From a virus (Duplodnaviria > Heunggongvirae > Uroviricota > Caudoviricetes), in IMG/VR virus record IMGVR_UViG_2671181050_000002: a stretch of 12,542 bases of DNA, one strand, 5' to 3'. Below, in pieces: positions 1-12,542 of this stretch. The notes below the pieces were generated by a model that searched no databases, was not told where the DNA came from, and saw nothing but the letters and a program-made list of their open reading frames with translations. The position numbers and the translations under genes were made by a program. Every line of letters starts with the position of its first letter. Within the stretch, counting starts at the first letter, position 1.

Positions 1-101
1 AGGCGGAATATATGCGTCACCTTCACCAATAAATTCATTAGTTCCGGCCAGCAGATTATAAATTTTTATGGTCCGTGCTTGTTCACTCATTCTGAATGCC
101 A
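1..101 (-). CDS. tfa: Tail fibre assembly protein Tfa, 5' end only (gene continues beyond window start)
   Basis: Minus-strand translation from ATG at 101-99 gives [34 protein letters not shown], matching the lambda Tfa N-terminus as recalled; the ATG overlaps the upstream stop (TAATG). Confidence 0.8.
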
Positions 102-2198
102 TTATGCAAGCCTCACAATATAGTTAAATGCGATGTTTTTGACGGTGTTTTCCGCGTTACCCGCAGCGTTAACGGTGATGGTGTGTCCATGTGAGCCAAT
201 CGCAACGGAGTGCGTATGAGCACCAATACCGACAGTATGTGCATGTGCGCCTGCGCTTGCAGCAGTGCCGGACAGCGAGTGGGTATGAGCACCATCTGAT
301 GATGTCTTCCCTGCATTACGAGTCTGGCCACTACCGCTTGTTGTGCTCATAATCCCCGCGCTTGGATTTGAAATCGCGGTATAACCATTAGGGAAAATGC
401 TCGTGTTCGTGCCACCAAATGCACCGGAACTCTTGTGTTGGTGCGCGCCGGCACTATTTGCGGTCCCGCTAATACTATGGGTATGCGCCCCGGTGTTATT
501 CGTGGATTTGGTTCCGTAATCAAACGACGATGTGGTTTTCGTCCCCAAATCCGTACTGGATGCGCTGGCGCTGTGGGTGTGCGATTTAATGCCGTCCTGT
601 TCCTGAGACAATACGGCGCGACCACTGGCAGGTTTGCCCTTAATCGTCCAGCCACGCATATCAGGGATCACGCCTGACGGATAAGCGGCTGCAAGTTTCG
701 GGTATGCAGATTTGTCAAAAGTCTGCCCCTGCATCAGGGCATAACCAGACGGAACGGTATCTGATGGCCACGGGATTGGTGCGCCGACTGGGTAGCTTTC
801 TGGTGGAAGATTTTTCGAGGTATAAACTTCTGCCCAGTCTTCCTCAAAACCATAGCCATCTCTTGAGGAACGGTAGAACAGACCTCCATTTCTGTAATGT
901 GCCTTCACCCCCTTCACCACCTTCGGCGTGTCCCAGCGCGCCAGCACCTGATATTCCCCGCTGTCTGCGGTGACTTCGGCAGTCAGGTGCTGCACCGCTG
1001 GCGGCGTGACATCATTCACCGTGCCGCTCTGGTCGCCGTCAAAGTGCGCCCCGTTATCCACGATGGCTTCTTTTTCCGGTACATGCTGCACGGCAGTGAT
1101 GGCATACGTGCCGTCATCGTTCTCACGGATACTCACACAGCGGAACAGGCGCTGACGCAACGTCGGCAACTTCAGCCCCCACACACTGTATTCTGCAACG
1201 CCGTCAGGAACCCGGTTCACTTTCACCTTAAGTCCGTCGGTGACGGACTGAACCTCCACGCTGACCGGACTCCCCTGCCCGTCAACCAGGCTTATCAGCG
1301 TGGTGCCGGAAGATGGCAGCGTGATTTCACGGTCGAGCGTCAGCGTCCGGGTCTGGCTGTTCACCGCCAGCACGCGACCACCGGTGCTGATACCGGCATA
1401 GTCATCATCGCAGATTTCAATGACATCGCCCGGTACATGGCGAAGCCCTTCAGCACCCACGCTGAAATCCACGGTCTGCGTCTCCAGCAGTTCCGTTTTA
1501 ATCAGCCACAGCCCGGCGCGGTGTGCCTGCCCCCGGCTGGTACAGCCAAAGGCATCCATCTTCGTGACATTACGACCGTAACGGGCAATGGCCTGCGTAT
1601 CTTCAACAAGCTCTGTCGCCGTCTCCCAGCCGTTGTTCGGGTCAATCCAGTTCACCTCAACGGCATTATGGCGGTCCTTCAGGGCGCTGAAGCTGTAGCG
1701 GAACGGCGCGCCATCATCCGGCATCACCACATTACTGCGGTTATAGGTCCACACCTTATCTGATGGTCGGTCCTGCACGAACGTCAGCGTCTGCCCGTTC
1801 CATACCGGCATACAGCGCATCGCCGAGCAGAAATCACTGAGCACATCCCACGCCTTACGCTGTGTGGTCAGCCAGGCATTACAGGTGATGCGCGGCTCCG
1901 TGCCGCCAAAACCATTCGGTACCAACTGGTCGCAGTACTGGCCGATGACATACAGCGTCCATTTATCCACATCTGCTGCACCAAGACGTTTCCCCATGCC
2001 GTAGCGCGGATGGGTCAGCATATCCCACAGACACCAGGCCATGTTGTTGCTGTATGCTGGCTTAAACGTTCCATCCCAGATACCGCTGTATTGCCGCGTC
2101 TGCGGGTTATAGTTCGACGGCACCTGCAGAATGCGCCCGCGCAGATGATAATTACGGCTCACCTGCTGGCTGCCGAACTGCTCCGAGTCCACCTGCAC
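102..2198 (-). pseudogene. Chimeric tail-fibre remnant: central part of host-specificity protein J (ORF aa 1-431) fused in frame to the C-terminal ~265 aa of side tail fibre Stf (GAHTHS His-box repeats, ends [11 protein letters not shown])
   Basis: 698-aa ORF from the six-frame track. Its N-terminal part ([41 protein letters not shown] ... [12 protein letters not shown]) matches the middle of lambda J as recalled; after residue ~431 it switches to Stf-like C-terminal sequence. The first codon is GTG in the middle of J sequence with no ribosome-binding site, and the upstream A fragment is in another frame. Confidence 0.7.
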
Positions 2199-3088
2199 GC
2201 CGACCAGTGCCGTGTTCGGGTATCCCCTTTCGTCTTCATCCAGTCTTTGACAATCTGCACCCAGGTGGTGAACGGGCTGTACGCCGTCCAGATGTGAAAG
2301 GTCACACTGTCCGGCGGCTCAATCTCTTCACCGGATGACGAAAACCAGAGAATGCCATCACGGGTCCAGATCCCGGTCTTTTCGCAGATATAACGGGCAT
2401 CAGTAAAGTCCAGCTCCTGCTGGCGGATGACGCAGGCATTATGCTCGCAGAGATAAAACACGCTGGAGGGGTCATCCGGCGTCCATTTGAGGCCAAACGG
2501 CGTCTCTTTGTCGCCAAATTTAAGATACTGCTCCTCCCCGCAGTGCGGGCAGGCAACATGAAAACGCATAAAATGCGGGGATTCACTGGCTGCACGCTCA
2601 ATCTGGCAGGTGCCTCTCACTTTGGGCGTGGAGCCACGGATGGACTTTGGCCAGACCGAGCCTTCAATACGCTTGTCACCCAGGAACGTCGGAGAGCCTT
2701 CCTGTTCAATATCATCATCAAAAGCAGCAAGTTCATCATAACCCGCCACATCCACCGACTTTTCACGGTAGTTTTTTGCCGCTTTACCGCCCAGGCACCA
2801 GAAGCCACGCCCATTAGTGAAACGCTTCATGGTGAGCGTGTTATCCCGGTGCTTTTTGCCATACCACGGGGCCAGCGCCAGCAGCGACGGAATATCACGA
2901 ATAGTCGGCTCAACGTGGGTTTTCATAAAGTTCTCGGCATCACCATCCGTCGGCAACCAGATAAGGGTGTTGCGCTGCTTATGCTCTATGAAGTAGGCAT
3001 AAACACCCAGCAGCATTTTGGAATAACCAACACGGGCAGACTTCACCACATTCACCTCGCGGATGTAGTCACTGCCCATCGCATTCAT
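2159..3088 (-). pseudogene. A: Terminase large subunit (gpA) internal fragment, lacking the N-terminal ~65 aa and the entire C-terminal half
   Basis: Translation (…)[67 protein letters not shown] ... [15 protein letters not shown] matches lambda gpA as recalled, then 19 out-of-frame codons derived from J sequence before the stop at 2159. An internal ATG at 3088 is the only possible start. Confidence 0.8.
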
Positions 3089-3201
3089 GATGGCCCGCTG
3101 CCACCTCCGGAGACGCAAGGGAGTCCCTGAGACTGCCAGCGTTCAATCGTTCGCGGATCCACGTTGAAAATTTCGGCAAGTTTCTTTTTATTAACCTTCA
3201 T
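3085..3201 (-). pseudogene. Terminase small subunit (Nu1-like) N-terminal stub, 38 codons
   Basis: ATG at 3201 gives [38 protein letters not shown], resembling the Nu1 N-terminal HTH region (lambda MEVNKKQLADIFGASIRTIQNWQEQGMP...). The reading frame runs into gpA-derived sequence at about 3097-3100 and stops at 3085. Confidence 0.6.
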
Positions 3202-3225
3202 GAAACAGTCTCACAACAAACACAG

Positions 3226-3337
3226 GGTCCGACATGAAAGTGCCCGAAAATGACTTTTTTAGGCGTTTTCATGTCGGACCTTTTACGGATTCGATATTAG
3301 AAAAAACAAATAGTTATGTTCGAGAAGTACCGACATG
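3226..3337 (-). other. cosB-like region: three R-site-like repeats CATGTCGG(A/T)AC at 3226-3236, 3270-3280 (inverted) and 3327-3337
   Basis: The three 11-mers were read directly; they lie between the cosN-like site and the Nu1 start in the same R3/R2(inverted)/R1 arrangement as lambda cosB, but with a different repeat sequence. Confidence 0.55.
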
Positions 3338-3344
3338 ATTTTCC

Positions 3345-3420
3345 CCGGAAAATTTTCATAAATAGCGAAAACCCGCGCGCCTTCCGCCCCGTAACCTGTC
3401 GGATCGCCGGAAAGGACCCG
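3345..3420 (-). other. cosN/cosQ-like terminase nicking region
   Basis: Minus strand reads CCGACAGGTTACG GGGCGGAAGGCG CGCGGGTTTTCGCTATTTATGAAAATTTTCCGG. The flanks match the lambda cos sequence as recalled (…ACAGGTTACG GGGCGGCGACCT CGCGGGTTTTCGCTATTTATGAAAATTTTCCGG), but the central 6 nt of the 12-nt cohesive-end core (3378-3389) differ. Confidence 0.65.
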
Positions 3421-3588
3421 CAAAATGATAATAATTATCATCTACATGTCACAACGTGCATCTACGCCATCAAACCACGTCAAATAATCAATTATGACGC
3501 AGGTATCGTATTAATTGATCTGCATCAACTTAACGTAAAAACAACTTCAGACAATACAAATCAGCGACACTGAATACGGGGCAACCTC

Positions 3589-3822
3589 ATGTCAACGAAG
3601 AACAGAACCCGCAGAACAACAACCCGCAACATCCGCTTTCCTAACCAAATGATTGAACAAATTAACATCGCTCTTGAGCAAAAAGGGTCCGGGAATTTCT
3701 CAGCCTGGGTCATTGAAGCCTGCCGCCGGAGACTGTGCTCAGAAAAAAGAGTTTCGCCTGAAGCAAACAAAGAAAAGAGTGACATTACTGAATTGCTCAG
3801 AAAACAGGTTAGACCAGATTGA
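3589..3822 (+). CDS. Small basic protein (77 aa) with a ribbon-helix-helix-like N-terminal segment, possibly the DUF3950/YlcI-YnfO family
   Basis: ORF MSTKNRTRRTTTRNIRFPNQMIEQINIALEQKGSGNFSAWVIEACRRRL... has a beta-strand / helix / helix pattern typical of Arc/CopG-type RHH proteins. The corresponding DNA is conserved in the lambda right arm next to cos (recalled). Family name is from memory. Confidence 0.5.
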   Translation: MSTKNRTRRTTTRNIRFPNQMIEQINIALEQKGSGNFSAWVIEACRRRLCSEKRVSPEANKEKSDITELLRKQVRPD

Positions 3823-3879
3823 AGCAATTTAGATAATCGTGCAGACTACGCCCCCTCATATCACATGGAAGGTACTACA

Positions 3880-4290
3880 ATGGCTCAGGTTGCCATTTTT
3901 AAACAAATATTCGATAAAGTGCGAAATAATTTAAACTATCACTGGTTTTATTCTGAACTAAAACGTCACAATGTCTCACATTACATTTACTATTTAGCCA
4001 CAGAGAATATTCATCTTGTTCTTGAAAACGATAATACGGTTTTAATAAAAGGACAGGGTAAGGTTGTAAATGTAAGATTTTCAAAAAATAAATGCCTTAT
4101 AGAAGCCACCTTAAAAGGATTCAAATCAGGAGAGTTATCATTTTACGAATACAGGAAAAATCTTGCTACAGCAGGGGTTTTCAGATGGATTACAAATATC
4201 CACGAAAACAAAAGGTATTACTATACCTTTGATAATTCATTACTCTTTACTGAGAACATTCAGAACACTACACAAATATTTCCGCACTAA
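3880..4290 (+). CDS. AT-rich hypothetical protein (136 aa from MAQVAIF), conserved lambda right-arm ORF
   Basis: ORF intact; a recalled lambda right-arm ORF translates to a related protein (about 75 percent identity by eye) with the reading frame preserved, which suggests a real gene. Followed by hairpin GTCCGGTT-N13-AACCGGAC at 4301-4329. Confidence 0.5.
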
Positions 4291-4878
4291 ATCATAACGT
4301 CCGGTTTCTTCCGTGCCAGAACCGGACTCGCTGGCATGATGAAATATGTGTACCCGGTAACCCCGGTGTGCATCGTTTTTGATTATTCCCGCACACTCGC
4401 GCAGAAGGAGTTCCCCGTCGGGCTACGGTCTCTGTTAATACGGGAATACGGCGACGATACAGCGCATGATGTGTCAGGCTTGAATGCCTTTATCCTTTAA
4501 AAGGGATATCAGTTAAGTTATCCCGTGTAGGGTATAAGCCATTATCAAAGCCACTCTGTAGGGAATGGCTTTTGTGATGGCATCACTTACTCTTTACGCT
4601 GCTATCCCACTCATCCCGGAATTTTGATGGGTTATTGAAACCTTCTGCTGACATAACAACTCCTTCAATGTTTGGCTGAAATTAGGATGTCTTTCCATCA
4701 GTCCGCCACCACAAAGAATCTTTTTTGCCATAAGGCAGGAGGTTCATCTTTCAGTGGCTGCCGGTGTTATTTCCCCACTTACTGGCTTGGGTTGTTTCGT
4801 GGTACTGCCGTTAACTGGTGGCCCAGAATAAATTCCGGTTTCATTATCAAGCCCACCCGTAAATGGGCTTTGTAATGG

Positions 4879-5148
4879 CTACTTCACTTTTGCTTTTGCT
4901 TTTGCTTCCGCTCGCTTACGCCGGCGCTCTTCTTTCCTCTCGGCTTTTGCCATGTCCATGAATGCCTGCATGATCGAGTTCCGCATCATGTAGCTAACAA
5001 AGTGATGATTGACACAGCCGTTGAGGCGCAGCTGCTCGCCAAACTCATCCACCGAGGCCAATGCTTCCATCATGCCCTTCTCGCCTTTCATGAACTCTGA
5101 GAAGTCGCGCCCCGCTCTGGAGGCGCATTCAATGACACGATCACTCAT
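4879..5148 (-). CDS. Hypothetical protein (89 aa) with a Lys/Arg-rich C-terminal tail
   Basis: ORF MSDRVIECASRAGRDFSEF...KAERKEERRRKRAEAKAKAKVK; its ATG overlaps the stop of the upstream KilA-N ORF (ATGA), suggesting translational coupling. No homolog recognised. Confidence 0.4.
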   Translation of the reverse strand: MSDRVIECASRAGRDFSEFMKGEKGMMEALASVDEFGEQLRLNGCVNHHFVSYMMRNSIMQAFMDMAKAERKEERRRKRAEAKAKAKVK

Positions 5149-5641
5149 CCCGGAAGCCCGGGGATCGTAATCTGCAGCTGGTTAGCCAGGGAGTTAATCT
5201 CAGCGACCAACACTGGCTTCGTATAGCGCCATGCTGCCAGCCCTTGTCCGCAGAAGCTCGCCATGTCTTTCTTCTGGTCAAACTCATGACATTTCATGTT
5301 GAGCTGCGCACTTAAGCTGTTGCGATGCTGAAGTTCTCCGGTGAAGTAGTCATCGAGGACTTTATAGGCCGCGTACTTGAACCCGGGGTTTAACCAAGCC
5401 GCATAATCGTAAGCAACAAACTTCCCGCCATATGTTCCACCGTGTACACCGCGCTCAGTAAAAACCACAGATTCGTGGTTTTTCTCCAGCTCGGCTAAGA
5501 ACTCTTTGGTCTGCTTGTTTCGCAGGTAGTGGTAAGGCGATTCAGATTCACTTTTACCACTGGCTTTCCACATACAGTGAGGCAGATCATGCCATCTTCA
5601 CCGATACGAATTGGTTGATTGAAGAGGGTTAATGATTTCAT
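5145..5641 (-). pseudogene. KilA-N domain protein with an apparent -1 frameshift near 5571-5576; intact downstream ORF is 5145..5573 (142 aa)
   Basis: The 142-aa ORF contains KilA-N/APSES-like motifs (SPYHYLRNKQTKEFLAELEK ... GGTYGGKFVAYDYAAWLNPGF). The expected N-terminal strand MKSLTLFNQPIRIGEDGMICLT is encoded from ATG 5641 in a different frame and stops after 47 codons. Confidence 0.5.
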
Positions 5642-5756
5642 AGCGTGTACCTACTCTTTGAAATGAACCTTTGCCGCACAGGAAACCAGCCCACCGAGGC
5701 TCGCCAGCACTAACTGGTATCCTCAAAGGCCCATTCCAAAGGGGCAGGTTCGGTGT

Positions 5757-5810
5757 AAAAAACATGCGTTGCGGTACGCATTTATTGCAAAAAGCCCCGC
5801 ATCGCGAGGC
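5757..5810 (-). terminator. Two tandem intrinsic-terminator-like hairpins downstream of Rz
   Basis: Minus-strand hairpin 5794-5810 (GCCTCGC/GCGGGGC with a G-U pair) followed by TTTTTG, and hairpin 5764-5781 (ATGCGT-N6-ACGCAT) followed by GTTTTTT. Confidence 0.5.
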
Positions 5811-5842
5811 TCATTAAATGGACTTTGTGATTTGCAAAAAAA

Positions 5843-6301
5843 TTATTTCAGGCATTGCGTCCTGATGTATTCCTGCAGGTAGTTAACCTGCGCGGTTATC
5901 TTGTCGATTCCACTTCGGAGACGGTAATAATTGAGTTCAGCATCTGCTGTAAGTCCTGGGCTTTCTCCATCGCCCATGCCGCTGGCTCCGGTCGTTGACT
6001 TTGCACAGGTGGCGGCGACTTGCAGGCGCTTACGCCCAGCAGAAACATCAGCACGGAGACTTTCGATAGTCGCGTTAGCATCAGCAAGCTCCTTTGTGTA
6101 TCTTGCGTCGAGTTCTGCTACATCACGTTGACGCTTCCGCATGTCAGCGATGGTGGCGTTCGCCTTCTCCAGTTCTCTGGCATTTTTGTCGCGCTGGGCT
6201 TTGTAGGTAATGGCGTTATCACGGTAATGATTAACAGCCCATGACAGGCAGACGATGATGCAGATAACCAGAGCGGAGATAATCGCGGTTACTCTGTTCA
6301 T
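5843..6301 (-). CDS. rzpD: Spanin inner-membrane subunit Rz
   Basis: [45 protein letters not shown]... has an N-terminal TM helix and coiled-coil region typical of Rz. The ATG at 6301 overlaps the endolysin stop (ATGA). Confidence 0.8.
5896..6087 (-). CDS. rzoD: Spanin outer-membrane lipoprotein Rz1, nested in the +1 frame of Rz
   Basis: ORF wholly inside Rz in another frame; signal peptide ending in a lipobox-like LLGVSAC followed by a Pro-rich mature part ([16 protein letters not shown]...). Exact start (M1 or M3) uncertain. Confidence 0.65.
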
Positions 6302-6795
6302 TGCTGACCCCACAAACAGATTTCACGCTCAATCTCACGACGAGTCATGAGACCTTTCCATTGCTTACCGCCAGCATATGTCCAGCGACGTAGCTGATCA
6401 CATGCGCCTTTGATATCGCCCTGGTTTATTTTGCGAAGAAGTGTCGATGTTCTGAAATTGCCAGCGCCCACGTTGTAAACGAACGAGTAAAGAGCGCCGC
6501 GCGTTGTTTCCGGTATATCAACTTTTATGTACGGGTTAATTTGTCTGGCGACCGTGGCAAGGTCTTTATTCAGGAGGGCTTTGCATTCTGCTTTGGTATA
6601 CGTTTTACCGAGCATGATGTCTTTTCCTGTATGCCCGTGACATACAGTCCATACACCAACAATATCTTTGTATGGTATGTAGCTGACACCTTCCAGACCA
6701 TCGTTACCACTTGGGCCAGTGATTAACACTGATGCTATAGCAATTGCTCCGCCACCAATAGCAGCAGCAACGGCTTTTCGTAATGATGGAGGCAT
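6298..6795 (-). CDS. rrrD: SAR endolysin (lysozyme R, phage 21 type)
   Basis: 165 aa, N-terminal Gly/Ala-rich signal-anchor-release segment ([20 protein letters not shown]) followed by a T4-lysozyme-like catalytic region; matches the R21/RrrD sequence as recalled. Confidence 0.85.
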
Positions 6796-7010
6796 TATTC
6801 ACCTCTCGCAGCCTTGCGCTTATCTTCTTTAATCTTGAAATAAAGGTTTGTCAGGTACGTCAGCAGGCCAAATACCAGGCTACCCAGCACACCTATTGCT
6901 GCCCACTGTGAGGGCGTGACTTTATCGAGCAGCTGTAAAAACCAGTACCCGGCACTACCTGCTGAGGTGCCATAGGCGACACCCGTTGTTAACTTATCCA
7001 TGGATTTCAT
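6795..7010 (-). CDS. essD: Pinholin S (phage 21 type) with dual-start motif MKSM
   Basis: 71 aa, [71 protein letters not shown], two TM helices; stop overlaps the endolysin start by 1 nt (TGATG); GAGGTG upstream of the start. Confidence 0.85.
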
Positions 7011-7119
7011 AACCCCACCTCGCAGACAAAGCGGGTGTAAATTGAGGGAATACTACGAAACGTAACAGACTCGGAGTCAGTGAATAACTCAGGTATTGGG
7101 TTATCAGCTAATATCGAGA

Positions 7120-7155
7120 CTCAAAAAATGGAAAAACCCGCTCGACGGCGGGTTT
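7120..7155 (-). terminator. Intrinsic terminator upstream of the lysis cassette (tR'-like position)
   Basis: Hairpin AAACCCGC-N6-GCGGGTTT (7134-7155) followed on the minus strand by TTCCATTTTTTGAG. Confidence 0.5.
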
Positions 7156-7583
7156 AAGCTGTGTGACGAAGTAACCACTCTTAACAGCATAACCAATTTT
7201 TTACGTACGTAAACCACTAAATGATATTTGCGAGAATGCTACCGAGTATTGAAAACACCACTACAAATACATAAGCAAATCTCAACAAATAACCAACAAA
7301 TAATTTCCAGCGTTATTTTTAGTCAATTTAAATTGAACCTTCAAATTATAGAGCACTTATAAATAACAGCCATTAATATAAATTGGCTAATAGATTTATT
7401 TTTATTCAGTCAAGAGCCATGAATAGGATTCGATAGAAAAAAGTTCAGATAAAAATAGAGATCTACTTCACAAATCAAACGAGAAACCAAAACTTACATC
7501 TTGAAATATTCACATTGATTAGATGAATATTTATCGCGCAGTGACATCATTTTTTAATAATAGTTCAAAAAAAAGGGCTCACG

Positions 7584-8666
7584 ATGAAAAAATTAACAGT
7601 GGCAATTTCTGCTGTAGCTGCATCAGTACTGATGGCGATGTCTGCTCAGGCAGCTGAAATTTATAATAAAGACAGTAACAAGCTGGATCTGTACGGGAAA
7701 GTTAATGCTAAGCACTACTTCTCCTCTAATGATGCAGATGATGGTGATACTACTTATGCCCGTCTTGGCTTCAAAGGTGAAACCCAAATCAACGATCAAC
7801 TGACTGGTTTCGGTCAGTGGGAATATGAATTCAAAGGCAACCGCGCTGAATCTCAAGGTTCCTCCAAAGATAAAACCCGTCTTGCCTTCGCTGGCCTGAA
7901 ATTCGGTGACTACGGCTCCATCGATTACGGCCGTAACTACGGTGTAGCATACGACATCGGTGCATGGACCGACGTTCTGCCAGAATTCGGTGGCGATACC
8001 TGGACCCAAACAGATGTATTCATGACTGGTCGCACCACAGGTGTTGCAACTTATCGTAACAACGACTTCTTTGGTCTGGTTGATGGCCTGAACTTTGCAG
8101 CTCAGTATCAGGGCAAAAATGACCGAAATGAAGTAACTGAAGCTAATGGCGATGGTTTCGGTTTCTCAACTACTTATGAGTATGAAGGATTCGGCGTGGG
8201 TGCAACCTATGCTAAATCTGATCGCACTAATAATCAGGTTATCTACGGTAACAACGGTCTGAATGCTTCTGGTCAAAATGCTGAAGTATGGGCAGCTGGT
8301 CTGAAATATGATGCGAACAACATCTATCTGGCCACCACCTATTCTGAAACCCAGAACATGACTGTTTTTGGTAATAACCATATTGCCAACAAAGCACAAA
8401 ACTTCGAAGCTGTTGCACAATATCAGTTCGACTTCGGCCTGCGTCCATCCGTTGCTTACCTGCATTCTAAAGGAAAAGACTTGGGTGTTTGGGGTGATCA
8501 GGACCTGGTTGAATATGTTGATGTAGGTGCAACCTATTACTTCAACAAAAATATGTCCACTTTTGTTGACTACAAAATCAACCTGATTGATAAGAGCGAT
8601 TTCACGAAAGCATCTGGCGTTGCTACCGATGATATCGTTGCTGTAGGTATGGTTTACCAGTTCTAA
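7584..8666 (+). CDS. nmpC: Outer-membrane porin, NmpC/OmpD-like (OmpC/OmpF/PhoE family), apparently intact
   Basis: 360 aa; signal peptide [23 protein letters not shown] then AEIYNKD...; C-terminal VGMVYQF typical of general porins; closely matches DLP12 NmpC as recalled. Confidence 0.85.
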
Positions 8667-8673
8667 TTTGATT

Positions 8674-8735
8674 ACTAAAAGATATGTTGTGGGAGGCTTT
8701 GCCTCCCCAACATATAAGTGGCTCCCTCAAGCCAC
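8674..8735. terminator. Hairpin cluster immediately downstream of nmpC: 15-bp stem at 8682-8715 and 6-bp stem at 8718-8735
   Basis: ATATGTTGTGGGAGGC-ttt-GCCTCCCCAACATAT (one bulged T); on the minus strand it is followed by CTTTTAG, on the plus strand the second hairpin is followed by TTCCTTT. Possibly bidirectional. Confidence 0.4.
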
Positions 8736-8784
8736 TTCCTTTAGAAGCACAACCTTGCTTCTAACTATATAAACCTTCTGTTAT

Positions 8785-8815
8785 ATATTACCCTTTATTT
8801 TTGGGGGCGTTTCAA
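8785..8815 (-). promoter_or_regulatory. Candidate late promoter (pR'-like) just downstream of Q: TTGAAA-19 nt-TAATAT
   Basis: Minus strand -35-like TTGAAA (plus 8810-8815) and -10-like TAATAT (plus 8785-8790), about 40 bp after the quuD stop; the hairpins at 8682-8735 would give a short terminated leader. Sequence-pattern inference only; the 19-nt spacer is suboptimal. Confidence 0.3.
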
Positions 8816-8830
8816 CGCCCCATTTTTAAT
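8804..8830 (+). terminator. Intrinsic terminator, plus strand (likely nmpC terminator)
   Basis: GGGGCG-tttcaa-CGCCCC followed by ATTTTTAAT. Confidence 0.5.
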
Positions 8831-8854
8831 AACTTTTAGTAAATAATTGGCGTA

Positions 8855-9238
8855 TTAATTAGAGTTATTAACAACGATATCCATCTCTAACCGGATATCT
8901 AATGCCATTAACATCCCTTCAATTATGCCCTCAGCCTTTTGTAACCTTTTCCCGATATAACCATCAGAGCAGCAATGCTTACCTGCCAGTGACATGAATG
9001 TCATACCGACTATATAATAATCTACTAATAAATCGTGCAAATCGCTGTTGTTCTTTTTCAGACGGGCCATGCACCCGCAAATGATCATCGCGTCATCGTC
9101 ACAACATTGCGGGCGAGATTTTACTTTTGAAGGAATTAATCCCTTAAAACCGGCGGCAATGGACGACCAGGTCACATCTTCATGATTATTAGCCGCCCAC
9201 GCTCCCCAACGCTCAAGAACCATCTGAATATCACGCAT
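8855..9238 (-). CDS. quuD: Late-gene antiterminator Q (phage 82 type)
   Basis: 127 aa from [60 protein letters not shown]...; GGAG 8 nt upstream of this ATG; matches DLP12 QuuD as recalled. The longer ORF-track start (9253) lacks an RBS. Confidence 0.8.
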
Positions 9239-9323
9239 CAACTTACTCCACAAAAATCAGACCAAAACGCCAATTACAAGCAAAAATCAACAAAACAGTA
9301 TTAGTTGATTGTTATCTCTGACT

Positions 9324-9464
9324 TCATACTCCTGCTCCTGTCAGTGTTTTGGCGTAATTCTTCAGTATTCGGTAATCGGTCAAAACAGAACCGGGGAAAC
9401 GATATAAGCGCAGACGCCCCCAGCGGTGGCGAAGAAGTTCTGCCATATTAAACTCAAACATCAT
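9324..9464 (-). CDS. ylcG: Small protein YlcG-like (46 aa)
   Basis: Translated by hand: [46 protein letters not shown]; ATG overlaps the rusA stop (ATGA). Below the ORF-track size cutoff. Confidence 0.55.
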
Positions 9465-9823
9465 TCATTCCCCATTTCGGTGATGGTCAGTTCCAGCCTC
9501 CCACCTTTGGTAACAGGCATCTTCACAACGCGGTAATCAACGACCTGAGCATCATCCAGCCAGAAACCTGCTTTAGTGAGTGCGTCAAAAGCGGCTTTTT
9601 GCAGATTATCCAGGTCACGGCGACGGCGATCCGGCATGTGGCACTCAATGCGGATTTTCACAGGCATAGCCAGGCCGATATCCAGCATTGCGTTTTTAAT
9701 GATTCGGGCGACGTTATCACGGTATGCCTGCCCTTCTGCGCTGATGTGCGTGCGCCCGCGATTATGCCGGTAGTAGCGGTTATTGCTCGGAGGCCAGGGT
9801 AATGTGATGCTGTAGGTATTCAC
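9461..9823 (-). CDS. rusA: Holliday-junction resolvase RusA
   Basis: 120 aa [120 protein letters not shown]; GTG start overlaps the upstream stop (GTGA). Confidence 0.85.
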
Positions 9824-9948
9824 GCCTTAATAACCCCCTCTTTCAGCCAGATAACCTGTGTTCTCGCCATACCTTCCAGCGCGCATTCTTTTGCATATGC
9901 AGCATCGACTTGCTTGGCATGCCCTTTACCGGCAATCTTCTGTATGCG
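9820..9948 (-). pseudogene. ybcO: ybcO-like 3' remnant (C-terminal ~41 codons, no start codon)
   Basis: The frame coupled to the rusA start reads ...[33 protein letters not shown], resembling the C-terminus of DLP12 YbcO as recalled; upstream in this frame are stops at 9949-9951 and 9955-9957 and no ATG. The 9949-10029 segment has no convincing coding frame. Confidence 0.4.
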
Positions 9949-10029
9949 CTAAACCTAGATAGAATCCACTCTGTGCACATTGAAGCCCGCTCTATGCTTC
10001 CTTTCAGGTATTGAAGGGATTGAGATGGG

Positions 10030-10377
10030 CTAAGCATTATTGGCCTCCTGCATCAGGAGAAAGACAATCATGGCGGCGCGGAGAGGTCTGGTATCAAATA
10101 TTGGGCTTACGCCTTTTGCATCCACACACCATTCAGTTAACTGGTCTAAGATAGAAATCCTGTATTTCTCAATAATCGGCCATGAAGCGCTCGGATCATT
10201 GCAGTAGTCAGGCAAATGATTTAATGGCTCAAAAGTTGTATCAGCATTTCCGTAATACCATTTGTTGGTGTTATTCCCTGATGTTTCCGGTTTACTTGCC
10301 CAAAGGCCTTTAAAAATTATGTCTCCTACCATTCTGTTAATTTCAAAATCACTTAACTGTGAATAATCCATTGTCAT
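10030..10377 (-). CDS. Hypothetical nin-region protein (115 aa from [20 protein letters not shown]...)
   Basis: ORF-track entry 10030..10413; the ATG at 10377 overlaps the ninE stop (ATGA), so it is the likely start. I could not place it in a family with confidence (possibly DUF2591/NinX-like, from memory). Confidence 0.5.
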
Positions 10378-10550
10378 TTCCTCGCACGATATCTTAGCCA
10401 CCGGATATCCCACAGGTGAGCTGTGTAATTGAAGGTTTTTACGTCAGATTCTTTTGGGATTGGCTTGCGTTTATTTCTGGAGCGTTTCGTTGGAAGGTAT
10501 TTGCAGTTTTCGCAGATGATGTCGGTGAAACTTCGTCGCTGTCGCCTCAT
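10374..10550 (-). CDS. ninE: NinE protein (58 aa)
   Basis: [58 protein letters not shown], matching lambda/DLP12 NinE as recalled; ATG overlaps the methyltransferase stop (ATGA). Confidence 0.75.
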
Positions 10551-11074
10551 GCCGCCCTCCTGACGCCCTGCCCGATCGCCATCAATGCCGCTTTGGATAC
10601 GGTAGTAAACATCCGTCGAGGACTGATGAACGGTCGCCAAATCAGCAGCATGGAGCCTTTGCTGTTTCCCTTCTTCTCCAGCCCTGTCGATGGTTCGATA
10701 AAATTAATCCGTCCATCAGTGATAATGCGAACTTCGTCGACACTCTCCAGAGCCTTGCTGAACCATCCGACTGACATATCCTCTGGCACAAGCATAACTA
10801 CCGTCTGTCGCTGTTGTATGCACTGCTCAGCGGCTTTTTCCACCCACGGCCTGATATTGCTGTACGGTGGGTTATTCCAGATTGCACCGTGGCTTACCCA
10901 CTCAGAATTGAGCGCGTCGTCGGCCTCAGTTAGCCAGTGAGCACACAGAGCATTTTTGTCGCTCGCTGCCGAATCCAGCCAGAATCCAAACTCAATATCC
11001 AGTGCATCAAAAAGCCAAAGCGGCGTTTGCCAGCAGTCCTTGTCGTGTGCTGGCGTATTTGATTTGATAGTCAT
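10547..11074 (-). CDS. Phage-type orphan DNA N6-adenine methyltransferase (Dam family), 175 aa
   Basis: From [31 protein letters not shown]...; catalytic NPPY motif ([14 protein letters not shown]); ATG overlaps the ninB stop (ATGA). No adjacent restriction endonuclease gene. Confidence 0.75.
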
Positions 11075-11511
11075 GCAGCCCGATCTCCCCATCTCGCTTT
11101 CCACTCCAGAGCCAGTCTCGCTTCGTCTGACCACTTAACGCCACGCTCTGTACCGAATGCCTGTATAAGCTCTAATAGCTCCGCAAATTCGCCTACACGC
11201 ATCCTGCTGGTTGACTGGCCTATTACCACAAAGCCATTCCCGGCAAGGTTAGGAACAACATCCTGCTGCTTTAATGCTGCGGTAAACACACACTTCCAGC
11301 TTTCTGCATCCAGCCAGCGACCATGCCATTCAACCTGACGAGAGACGTCACCTAAGCAGGCCCATAGCTTCCTGTTTTGGTCTAAGCTGCGGTTGCGTTC
11401 CTGAATGGTTACTACGATTGGTTTGGTTGGGTCTGGAAGGATTTGCTGTACTGCGTGAATAGCGTTTTGCTGATGTGCTGGAGATCGAATTTCAAAGGTT
11501 AGTTTTTTCAT
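11071..11511 (-). CDS. ninB: Recombination protein NinB (Orf family)
   Basis: 146 aa from MKKLTFEIRSPAHQQNAIHAVQQILPDPTKPIVVTIQERNRSLDQNRKLWACLGDVSRQVEWHGRWLDAESWKCVF..., matching lambda NinB as recalled; GGGAGAGGGAAG upstream of the ATG at 11511. Confidence 0.85.
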   Translation of the reverse strand: MKKLTFEIRSPAHQQNAIHAVQQILPDPTKPIVVTIQERNRSLDQNRKLWACLGDVSRQVEWHGRWLDAESWKCVFTAALKQQDVVPNLAGNGFVVIGQSTSRMRVGEFAELLELIQAFGTERGVKWSDEARLALEWKARWGDRAA

Positions 11512-11526
11512 GACTTCCCTCTCCCC

Positions 11527-11559
11527 CAAATAAAAAGGCCTGCGATTACCAGCAGGCCT
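11527..11559 (-). terminator. tR2-like intrinsic terminator upstream of ninB
   Basis: Hairpin AGGCCTGC-N8-GCAGGCCT (11536-11559) followed on the minus strand by TTTTATTTGG; it occupies the position of lambda tR2 (between ren and ninB). Confidence 0.45.
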
Positions 11560-11579
11560 GTTATTAGCTCAGTAATGTA

Positions 11580-11648
11580 GCAGAACACATCCGGTACATG
11601 GTTGAAACCATTGCTCACCACCAGGTTGATATTGATTCAGAGGTATAA
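11580..11648 (+). pseudogene. gam: gam 3' stub (last 22 codons and stop of the Gam inhibitor of RecBCD)
   Basis: In-frame [25 protein letters not shown] ends 5 nt before the bet ATG, matching the Gam C-terminus as recalled; upstream the frame is closed by TAG at 11565-11567 and no gam N-terminus is present. Confidence 0.6.
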
Positions 11649-11653
11649 AACGG

Positions 11654-12439
11654 ATGAGTACAGCACTCGCAACGCTGGCAGGGAAGCTGGCTGAACGTGT
11701 CGGCATGGATTCTGTCGACCCACAGGAACTGATCACCACTCTTCGCCAGACGGCATTTAAAGGCGATGCCAGCGATGCGCAGTTCATCGCATTGTTGATC
11801 GTCGCCAACCAGTACGGCCTTAATCCGTGGACGAAAGAAATTTACGCCTTCCCTGACAAGCAGAACGGCATCGTTCCGGTGGTGGGCGTTGATGGCTGGT
11901 CCCGTATCATCAATGAAAACCAGCAGTTTGATGGCATGGACTTTGAGCAGGACAATGAATCCTGCACATGCCGGATTTACCGCAAGGACCGTAATCATCC
12001 GATCTGCGTTACCGAGTGGATGGATGAATGCCGCCGCGAACCATTCAAAACCCGCGAAGGCAGAGAAATCACGGGGCCGTGGCAGTCGCATCCCAAACGG
12101 ATGTTACGTCATAAAGCCATGATTCAGTGTGCCCGTCTGGCCTTCGGATTTGCTGGTATCTATGACAAGGATGAAGCCGAGCGCATTGTCGAAAATACTG
12201 CATACACTGCAGAACGTCAGCCAGAACGCGACATCACTCCGGTTAACGATGAAACCATGCAGGAGATTAACACTCTGCTGATCGCCCTGGATAAAACATG
12301 GGATGACGACTTATTGCCGCTCTGTTCCCAGATATTTCGCCGCGACATTCGCGCATCGTCAGAACTGACACAGGCCGAAGCAGTGAAAGCTCTTGGATTC
12401 CTGAAACAGAAAGCCACTGAGCAGAAGGTGGCAGCATGA
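11654..12439 (+). CDS. bet: Single-strand annealing protein Bet (Red beta)
   Basis: 261 aa [84 protein letters not shown]..., essentially the lambda Bet sequence as recalled. Confidence 0.9.
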
Positions 12440-12542
12440 CACCGGACATTATCCTGCAGCGTACCGGGATCGACGTGAGAGCTGTCGAACAGGGGGATGA
12501 TGCGTGGCACAAATTACGGCTCGGCGTCATCACCGCTTCAGA
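12436..12542 (+). CDS. exo: Lambda exonuclease Exo (Red alpha), 5' end only (continues beyond window end)
   Basis: ATG at 12436 overlaps the bet stop (ATGA); translation [36 protein letters not shown] matches the lambda Exo N-terminus as recalled. Confidence 0.85.

Follow-up and report, generated by a model that had tools for sequence, protein, structure and literature searches.

A tightly packed chain of four genes on the minus strand of the window, the 12,542-nt stretch of Caudoviricetes DNA analysed here, raises the questions of what its members encode, where they came from, and whether they are still expressed. The initial annotation had read the chain as ninB, an orphan Dam methyltransferase gene, ninE, and a 115-aa ORF to which no function could be given. 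All four ORFs were confirmed on the minus strand where that annotation had placed them: ninB at 11511..11071 (146 aa), the methyltransferase gene, dam, at 11074..10547 (175 aa), ninE at 10550..10374 (58 aa), and the 115-aa ORF, identified below as ninX, at 10377..10030 (115 aa from the ATG at 10377). A 174-aa ORF on the plus strand, antisense to dam (10416-10940), was without a Pfam match and was taken as spurious, and an Rfam scan of the whole window detected no RNA families.

The sequence contains ATGA stop/start overlaps at 11074-11071, 10550-10547, and 10377-10374. The same 4-nt overlaps are annotated between ninB and dam and between dam and ninE in VT2-Sakai, and between ninE and ninX in ST64T. 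Because they are annotated alike in independent phages, the overlaps represent conserved architecture rather than chance. The claim that every junction is an ATGA was correct as to the presence of three overlaps, but the third hinges on which start codon NinX uses. The packing reaches past the four genes, as stop and start codons overlap or abut throughout in the geometry of an operon: the three ATGA overlaps are followed by an 8-nt overlap of ninX with a chimeric ninF' ORF, a GTGA between a ybcO remnant and rusA, and one more ATGA between rusA and ylcG. No minus-strand terminator-like site was found between 11511 and 9464. Such ATGA packing is described as a general trait of lambdoid nin regions in PMC8022706, which cites Kroger & Hobom 1982 and Cheng et al. 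1995. The tight packing noted initially is thus borne out and is consistent with translational coupling, as judged from geometry. Based on this architecture and the literature, overlapping or abutting stop and start codons could allow ribosomes to reinitiate along the packed train, and the lack of untranslated gaps would limit Rho-dependent polarity.

The first and third genes had been correctly identified. The product of ninB (11071..11511), the recombination mediator also known as lambda Orf, matched the Pfam NinB family over its full length (PF05772, 2e-54; 183 bits versus a cut-off of 23.8) as well as PHROG 72, and is identical at 146/146 residues to PDB 1PC6, 'Protein ninB', which is lambda Orf. 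The identical lambda protein loads RecA onto SSB-coated ssDNA. Similarly, NinE (10374..10550) matched PF05322 over its full length (3e-42; 142.6 bits versus 25; residues 1-58 on profile positions 1-58); in the narrower NCBIfam subfamily PRK09689, it scored below threshold (35 bits versus 88). The ATG of ninE, which overlaps the dam TGA, is preceded by a strong AGGAGG 5 nt upstream. A PDB sequence search returned no solved relatives of NinE.

Immediately upstream of ninB, the minus strand carries an intrinsic terminator-like hairpin and T-run (11536..11559). The hairpin has an 8-bp stem with six GC pairs, then TTTTATTT, and the sequence is identical to that of phage ev243 at this point. Its location before ninB is that of tR2 in lambda. 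Homology breakpoints define a deletion joint at 11578..11581, where the last codons of ren meet the 3' end of gam. Specifically, homology to ev243 stops at 11580, homology to gam/bet starts at 11578-11580, and the segment missing at the joint is ren-P-O-cII-cro-cI-N...gam. Independent contigs contain the joint without interruption and match the window at 99.9% identity. Protein look-up revealed the same arrangement in 15 contigs, beside ybhB-bioABFCD, and the exact joint was not found in GTDB representative genomes. A crude consensus scan, blind to weak and non-sigma-70 promoters and to read-through, detected no sigma-70-like promoter within 9200-12542.

The chain is best explained as the promoter-proximal part of a nin region that belongs to a lambda-family prophage; the nin genes are the non-essential end portion of the delayed-early rightward operon. 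Transcription of these genes in an intact phage starts at pR and passes the terminator preceding ninB by way of N antitermination. The ren-to-gam deletion, of approximately 8 kb, has removed pR and N together with the immunity and replication genes, which would leave the chain as a promoterless passenger; the grounded prophage that carries it lies at the lambda attachment site. Since pR and N have been lost and an intact terminator stands in front of the chain, we predict that the chain is probably expressed weakly in this prophage, if at all.

As a separate observation, the four proteins are intact and identical or nearly identical to the versions found in functional phages, which could also mean that they are still in use. 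A rival reading is a domesticated host function, in which the defective prophage is kept because NinB, Dam, RusA, or NinX benefits the bacterium and a new promoter drives the genes. Although large segments have been lost elsewhere, the ORFs are intact and retain 96-100% identity to their phage counterparts; the remnant recurs in 15 contigs of differing sample origin, and activation of rusA in DLP12 by IS insertion provides a precedent. Nevertheless, high identity equally fits a recent deletion or recombination with other lambdoid prophages, E. coli genomes having a median of 2 related lambdoid places each. Moreover, no promoter-like site lies upstream, the intact terminator directly precedes ninB, and GATC methylation, the specificity expected of the methyltransferase, would duplicate that of host Dam. 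We consider domestication quite unlikely and favor a promoterless passenger.

The product of dam (10547..11074) is a phage-type orphan DNA N6-adenine methyltransferase, as had been proposed. The profile search suggested in the initial annotation returned a family match: the 175-aa protein aligned with the PF05869 Dam profile over its full length (6e-65; 218 bits versus a cut-off of 28.1) and scored 266 bits against the TIGR01712 equivalog model, for which the cut-off is 97. Catalytic motif IV, (D/N)PP(Y/F), occurs as NPPY at residues 68-71, encoded by AAC CCA CCG TAC on the minus strand at 10873..10862. No solved relatives of Dam were found in a PDB sequence search. The ST131 prophage methyltransferase M.EcoMIV was dropped as a comparator as it belongs to a different family, PF02086.

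The methyltransferase is identical at 175/175 residues to the VT2-Sakai dam product, BAA94133. M.EcoVT2Dam targets GATC according to PMC6602927, which cites Radlinska & Bujnicki 2001; equating M.EcoVT2Dam with BAA94133 relies on 'dam' being the gene name in the record and on secondary citations. From this identity and the reported specificity, the window protein would be a methyltransferase that places m6A on GATC, and GATC is likewise the expected motif. Because GATC is also the host Dam site, a phage-specific methylation motif, which the initial annotation had proposed to seek, is not expected.

What the phage would gain from a second GATC methyltransferase can be proposed from related systems. 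The phi24B dam product, 100% identical to that of VT2-Sakai, has been found in cultures of lysogens, with a change in expression on induction (PMC3342100). Virion DNA of lambda and P22 is under-methylated by host Dam (PMC8022706). The enzyme might, by its proposed specificity, add m6A at GATC in fast-replicating phage DNA that host Dam under-methylates, and the benefit could be a shield against methylation-sensitive GATC nucleases or an effect on timing or regulation. PMC7556043 notes that the purpose of phage Dam enzymes remains poorly understood, and the anti-restriction or epigenetic role suggested initially is plausible but unproven.

That this enzyme recognizes other or looser DNA targets, or modifies RNA under the possible direction of a small neighbour such as NinE or NinX, appears highly improbable. 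The 'DNA adenine methyltransferase' of Stx-prophage phiPA8 methylates 16S rRNA when bound to the adjacent product, a case showing that lambdoid prophage enzymes can be mis-annotated and that the substrate can be determined by the product of a co-transcribed gene (PMC10810198). In addition, the window enzyme is very small at 175 aa, NinE and NinX have unknown functions, and another phage methyltransferase has very relaxed specificity (PMC7556043). However, the phiPA8 enzyme is of the MT-A70 family, has a DPPW motif, and is encoded at another locus, near the other prophage end with its own partner gene (PMC10810198), whereas the window protein has NPPY and matches PF05869 and the TIGR01712 equivalog; identity with the phiPA8 16S rRNA methylase was thus rejected. 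The identical protein, once cloned, is reported to methylate GATC (PMC6602927). An obligate pairing of dam with ninX is also contradicted, as VT2-Sakai has dam without ninX and ST64T has ninX without dam. The GATC-specific reading of the methyltransferase is retained.

The orphan status of this methyltransferase was also borne out. Among the nine proteins encoded from Q to Bet, neither a restriction endonuclease nor any other defence component was detected. PADLOC gives 'orphan methyltransferase' (oMTase) as the top match for the enzyme, and the flanking genes are those for NinB and NinE here, with the same neighbours in related loci. The idea that the enzyme remains from a restriction-modification system whose other half was lost draws on the carriage of a DNA methyltransferase by a mobile element and has a negligible probability, given that all related loci examined place NinB and NinE beside it and that the nine flanking proteins have no nuclease or defence match.

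The 115-aa ORF, initially described as unassignable and unusually placed, is ninX (DUF2591; 10030..10377, minus strand). The protein matched PF10765 (8e-17; 62 bits versus 22.6; residues 4-110 on profile positions 1-114) and PHROG 444 (8e-44), with identities of 96.5% to ST64T NinX and 62% to its P22 counterpart. Homologues number 930 at E <= 0.001, and NinX occurs widely among phages that infect Enterobacteria and Vibrio, both temperate and virulent. Its slot, with ninE immediately upstream and ninF next, is the usual one in P22 and ST64T, and the ST64T ninE-ninX-ninF junctions have the same 4-nt and 8-nt overlaps as the window. The concern that the ORF is not a real gene or is a piece of an adjacent one, prompted by its initial lack of assignment and the recombination scar just downstream, is almost certainly misplaced in view of the full-length PF10765 match, the 930 homologues, the NinX annotation in P22, ST64T, and many E. 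coli genomes, and a confident AF2 model (pLDDT 87, pTM 0.80).

The start of NinX is most likely the second ATG, at 10371, which gives a protein of 113 aa beginning 2 nt past the ninE stop. The majority of aligned NinX homologues start with MDYS, and PGAP and metagenome gene callers place the start of a 113-aa NinX at this ATG. A GAGG Shine-Dalgarno sequence lies 8 nt before the ATG at 10371 and only 2 nt before that at 10377. Based on these homologue starts, gene calls, and spacing, the ninE/ninX junction is probably TGA-CA-ATG.

The structure prediction proposed initially for the 115-aa protein yielded the confident model above, and a structure search with it matched uncharacterised proteins only. 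The model superposes on PDB 1R7L, a Bacillus cereus phage protein, and 4PUP, a Burkholderia cenocepacia protein, at TM 0.62-0.67 (Foldseek probability 0.95-1.00; E 6e-3 for 1R7L), although each shares just 12-16% sequence identity with NinX. NinX is accordingly predicted from the model to be a small alpha/beta/alpha protein with a phage-wide fold that has no characterised member. As 1R7L and 4PUP are structural-genomics entries without function, they provide no mechanism that can be transferred to NinX. The literature searched on NinX/DUF2591 contained genome-annotation mentions only. A thioredoxin assignment, suggested by weak PDB sequence matches (E 0.04-1.8), was rejected: the model gave a TM of ~0.15 and the protein has no CxxC motif. 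None of the relatives of NinX, whether by sequence or by structure, is characterised. That NinX inhibits a host defence or DNA-repair factor is a proposal that we regard as unlikely; in such an inhibitor, the conserved N- and C-terminal helices might act as a scaffold and the variable, recombining middle as a target-binding surface.

Downstream of ninX, the minus strand contains a recombination scar. A 64-aa ORF (9843..10037), which overlaps the ninX stop by 8 nt, is a chimera of the first ~20 codons of a P22-type ninF, unrelated sequence, and the 3' end of ybcO out of frame. It is not a complete NinF, as it shares only the first ~20 residues with that of ST64T; no Pfam or PHROG match was found for it, and the RefSeq record of ev099 labels it 'protein ninF'. 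The initial annotation had placed ybcO (DUF1364) downstream of the 115-aa ORF. No intact gene is present, only a 3' remnant (9820..9948) fused to the ninF 5' stub. The remnant covers positions 62-92 of the 92 in PF07102, scores 18 bits versus a cut-off of 29.9, and comprises the last ~30-42 codons, with the final ~90 nt identical to K-12. At a 99.8%-identical locus, PGAP treats the ybcO equivalent as a partial pseudogene, 'incomplete; missing N-terminus'. The remnant's TGA overlaps the GTG of rusA (9461..9823), which encodes a Holliday-junction resolvase of 120 aa (PF05866, 6e-23). The rusA TGA in turn overlaps the ATG of ylcG (9324..9464; 46 aa, annotated in the YlcG family), and the early-right operon ends with the gene for a QuuD-like antiterminator Q (8855..9238; PF06530, 1e-53), both also on the minus strand. 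The nin chain combines three known types of module in a mosaic: ninB-dam-ninE, ninE-ninX-ninF', and 'ybcO-rusA-ylcG-Q.

Taken together, we are confident in an account of the chain as a nin-region mosaic with packed translation and a GATC-specific Dam, carried as a promoterless passenger in a grounded prophage. The four genes form an already known, well-annotated lambdoid nin-region block in a crippled prophage. Two questions left by the initial annotation are closed, in that the 115-aa ORF is NinX and the methyltransferase is of the M.EcoVT2Dam type, for which GATC is the expected site; a methylome experiment should reveal no sites other than those of host Dam. With a nin chain predicted to lack a promoter and a prophage much reduced by deletion, the locus at the lambda attachment site would represent a small case of prophage decay and mosaic recombination.

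Comparison with known systems places each part of the chain. The 2.3-kb module occurs at >=80% query coverage in 540 of 5,426 complete E. coli genomes and in 27 phage records, where the same names are annotated. The closest relatives, phages ev243, ev099, ev017, and mEp332 and E. coli prophages such as that of CFSAN064035, have 98-99.8% nucleotide identity over 9300-11580. Loci of the ev243/ev099/ev017/mEp332 type share the order ninB-dam-ninE-ninX-(ninF'/ybcO')-rusA-ylcG with the window. Upstream, ev243-type loci run into ren-P-O-cII-cro-cI, whereas in the window this segment is deleted and ninB abuts the gam 3' end and bet. VT2-Sakai, 933W, phi24B, and HK97 share the ninB-dam-ninE order. In VT2-Sakai, dam is flanked by ninB and ninE with the 4-nt overlaps of the window, but the ninB allele is 149 aa, ninX is missing, and an unrelated ORF and then roi follow ninE. 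In P22 and ST64T, ninX directly follows ninE and has the 8-nt ninF overlap, as in the window; ST64T differs in that ninD occupies the place of dam upstream of ninE and ninF is complete, not reduced to ~20 codons. DLP12 of E. coli K-12 has the ybcO 3' end, rusA, ylcG, and Q in the same order as the window and an identical ybcO/rusA junction. Nevertheless, its arrangement, ybcN-ninE-ybcO-rusA-ylcG-quuD, has ybcN before ninE, a complete ybcO right after it, and neither dam nor ninX. Finally, the lambda nin region (ninB-ninC-ninD-ninE-ninF-ninG-ninH-ninI) resembles the window in NinB, the upstream terminator, and the ATGA packing; in lambda, ninC and ninD stand where the module has dam, and ninF and ninG stand in place of ninX and rusA.

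Four adjoining ORFs lie on the minus strand at 10030-11511: ninB (ORF 1, 146 aa, 11511..11071), a dam methyltransferase gene (ORF 2, 175 aa, 11074..10547), ninE (ORF 3, 58 aa, 10550..10374) and ninX (ORF 4, 115 aa, 10377..10030). The ATGA start/stop overlaps described in the initial annotation are all present, at 11074-11071, 10550-10547 and 10377-10374. The chain as observed was therefore confirmed, and the interpretation placed on it was borne out in part. ORF 1 matched the NinB family (Pfam, 2e-54) and was identical to λ NinB/Orf, whose structure is PDB 1PC6, at 146 of 146 residues. NinB/Orf is a recombination mediator, as established for the λ protein. ORF 3 matched the NinE family, PF05322, over its full length (3e-42).

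The same 4-nt overlaps are annotated at ninB/dam and dam/ninE in the VT2-Sakai record and at ninE/ninX in the ST64T record. Given their occurrence in unrelated phage records, the overlaps are a conserved architecture and not a coincidence. Beyond ninX, the chain runs on up to Q, with GTGA at ybcO'/rusA and ATGA at rusA/ylcG. A passage in PMC8022706 that refers to Kroger & Hobom 1982 and Cheng et al. 1995 describes dense ATGA packing as a general feature of lambdoid nin regions. Such packing is usually read as coupling by termination and reinitiation; judging from the geometry, this would apply here, and the packing would also leave no untranslated RNA as a Rho loading site.

ORF 2 encodes a phage-type N6-adenine DNA methyltransferase: it scored 218 bits against PF05869 and 266 bits against the TIGR01712 'phage_N6A_met' equivalog (cut-off 97), and its NPPY motif occupies residues 68-71. 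When 50,697 phage records were searched in translation, >200 proved at least 99% identical to ORF 2, mostly from Stx phages. The protein is identical at 175 of 175 residues to Dam of Enterobacteria phage VT2-Sakai (AP000422, BAA94133). According to a passage in PMC6602927 citing Radlinska & Bujnicki 2001, M.EcoVT2Dam of prophage VT2-Sa targets GATC. Based on this identity, GATC specificity is expected for ORF 2, and the phage-specific m6A motif envisaged earlier is not.

The methyltransferase was rightly described as an orphan: NinB and NinE flank dam in every locus examined, and its best PADLOC match was 'orphan methyltransferase'. Models for nuclease and defence proteins matched none of the nine proteins flanking dam which, with the PADLOC result, refutes an origin as the leftover of a restriction-modification system. 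An activity directed at RNA or at sites other than GATC is unlikely. It would parallel the phiPA8 enzyme, which methylates 16S rRNA together with a partner protein (PMC10810198), but that enzyme is of the MT-A70/DPPW type and is encoded at a different locus, and dam and ninX each occur without the other (VT2-Sakai, ST64T). As for GATC methylation, the virion DNA of λ and P22 is under-methylated by host Dam (PMC8022706), so the most economical role of the phage enzyme would be to top up GATC methylation on replicating phage DNA. In lysogen cultures, the phi24B dam gene (528 nt, 100% identical to its VT2-Sakai counterpart) was detected, and its expression changes upon induction (PMC3342100). According to PMC7556043, what phage Dam enzymes do is still poorly understood.

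The 115-aa ORF, initially left unassigned, is NinX: it matched PF10765 (formerly DUF2591; 8e-17) and PHROG 444 (8e-44), and shares 96.5% identity with its counterpart in Salmonella phage ST64T and 62% with the P22 protein. An AlphaFold2 model based on 56 homologues was confident (pLDDT 87, pTM 0.80) and predicts a helix at each end, the C-terminal one being long, with a poorly conserved middle and a small sheet between them. The model and the PF10765 match refute a spurious ORF or fragment. The Foldseek matches to the model were all uncharacterised proteins: in the PDB, 4PUP and 1R7L, the latter from a Bacillus cereus phage (TM 0.62-0.67), and in BFVD, unnamed phage proteins. In the literature, NinX appeared only in annotation mentions. 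Our best guess, a speculation, is a small binding or inhibitor protein that acts early in infection.

The alignment of 56 NinX family members (window 10030-10371) revealed conserved ends, MDYSxLSDFEIN and an 11-residue stretch at the other terminus, enclosing unrelated, interchangeable middles, a pattern that suggests intragenic mosaicism. Database entry P0003 (173 aa) is an apparent NinE-NinX fusion, probably the product of a sequencing error or a frameshift. Of the aligned sequences displayed, most begin with MDYS. PGAP and metagenome gene callers start NinX at the ATG at 10371 (113 aa), and a GAGG Shine-Dalgarno sequence lies 8 nt upstream of this ATG and only 2 nt upstream of that at 10377. 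Based on these data, the ninE/ninX junction is more probably TGA-CA-ATG than ATGA, which is still close enough for reinitiation.

Homology to intact phages ends at 11580, within the last ren codons, and from 11578-11580 onward the sequence continues with the 3' end of gam and then bet, on the plus strand. This break places a deletion joint at 11578-11581 (context 11520-11660). Compared with the complete E. coli genome CFSAN064035, ~8 kb was deleted, comprising ren, P, O, cII, cro, cI, N and everything else as far as gam. The deletion left bet (plus) and ninB (minus) divergent, 142 nt apart, with a terminator-like hairpin intact directly upstream of ninB (11559..11536, minus strand). A consensus scan of both strands of 9200-12542 found no sigma-70-like promoters, versus ~3.8 in shuffled sequence. 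The nin chain thus appears, from its sequence context, to be a promoterless passenger in a grounded prophage, and its expression is predicted to be weak or nil. Domestication of the chain by the host, a less likely reading, has no positive support.

The ren/gam joint was found neither in 5,426 complete E. coli genomes nor in GTDB representative genomes. However, 15 contigs, from metagenomes and GCA_948144105.1, do share this arrangement; those examined matched window 1-12197 at 99.9% identity across the joint and adjoin ybhB-bioABFCD, the λ attachment site. In related contigs (ERZ1741985 NODE_63, 12097-21629), the remnant is succeeded by a gene for tail-fibre assembly, one for an AraC-type regulator, IS fragments and finally ybhB-bioA-bioB-bioF-bioC-bioD. 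The prophage therefore occupies the λ attachment site, its J end facing bio. On the minus strand at 102-3118, a fragment of the terminase large subunit (GpA_ATPase; 3118..2159) leads into an ORF of 698 aa that combines J C-terminal domains with a collar and repeat region of tail-fibre type. No head or tail gene remains between the fragment and this fusion; the morphogenesis genes are thus gone too. Between Q and the lysis cassette is an intact OmpC/NmpC-like porin gene (360 aa, 7584-8666, plus strand), in the slot that holds an IS5-disrupted nmpC in K-12 DLP12. DLP12-like accessory genes downstream of the lysis cassette, at 3589-3822 (+), 3865-4290 (+) and 4879-5573 (-), encode YlcI/DUF3950, YbcV/DUF1398, a protein of the KilA-N type and, in an ORF without a family, 89 aa.

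The nin block is already known and named. Over window 9300-11580, 27 phage records (ev243, ev099, ev017, mEp332 and others) share 98-99.8% identity, and prophages in 540 of the 5,426 complete E. coli genomes match as well; all of them carry the annotations NinB, phage N-6-adenine-methyltransferase, NinE family, NinX family and RusA. The ybcO gene reported downstream is not intact: its frame retains the last 30-42 codons only (9820-9948, minus strand; PF07102 profile 62-92/92), and PGAP calls the equivalent a partial pseudogene. A chimeric 64-aa ORF (10037..9843, minus strand) overlaps ninX by 8 nt. Its first ~20 residues are P22/ST64T-type NinF, followed by unrelated sequence and the out-of-frame ybcO 3' end (last ~90 nt, DLP12-type). 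This ORF matched no Pfam or PHROG family, and its name in RefSeq ev099, 'protein ninF', looks like an over-annotation. The ninF'/ybcO' site is a fossil recombination joint between P22-type and DLP12-type nin modules. Finally, the position of ninX, initially considered unusual, is not: ST64T is annotated ninE-ninX-ninF with the same overlaps, so the slot after ninE is canonical for P22-type nin regions. The order differs from that of DLP12 solely because DLP12 carries another module in this slot, ybcN-ninE-ybcO-rusA.
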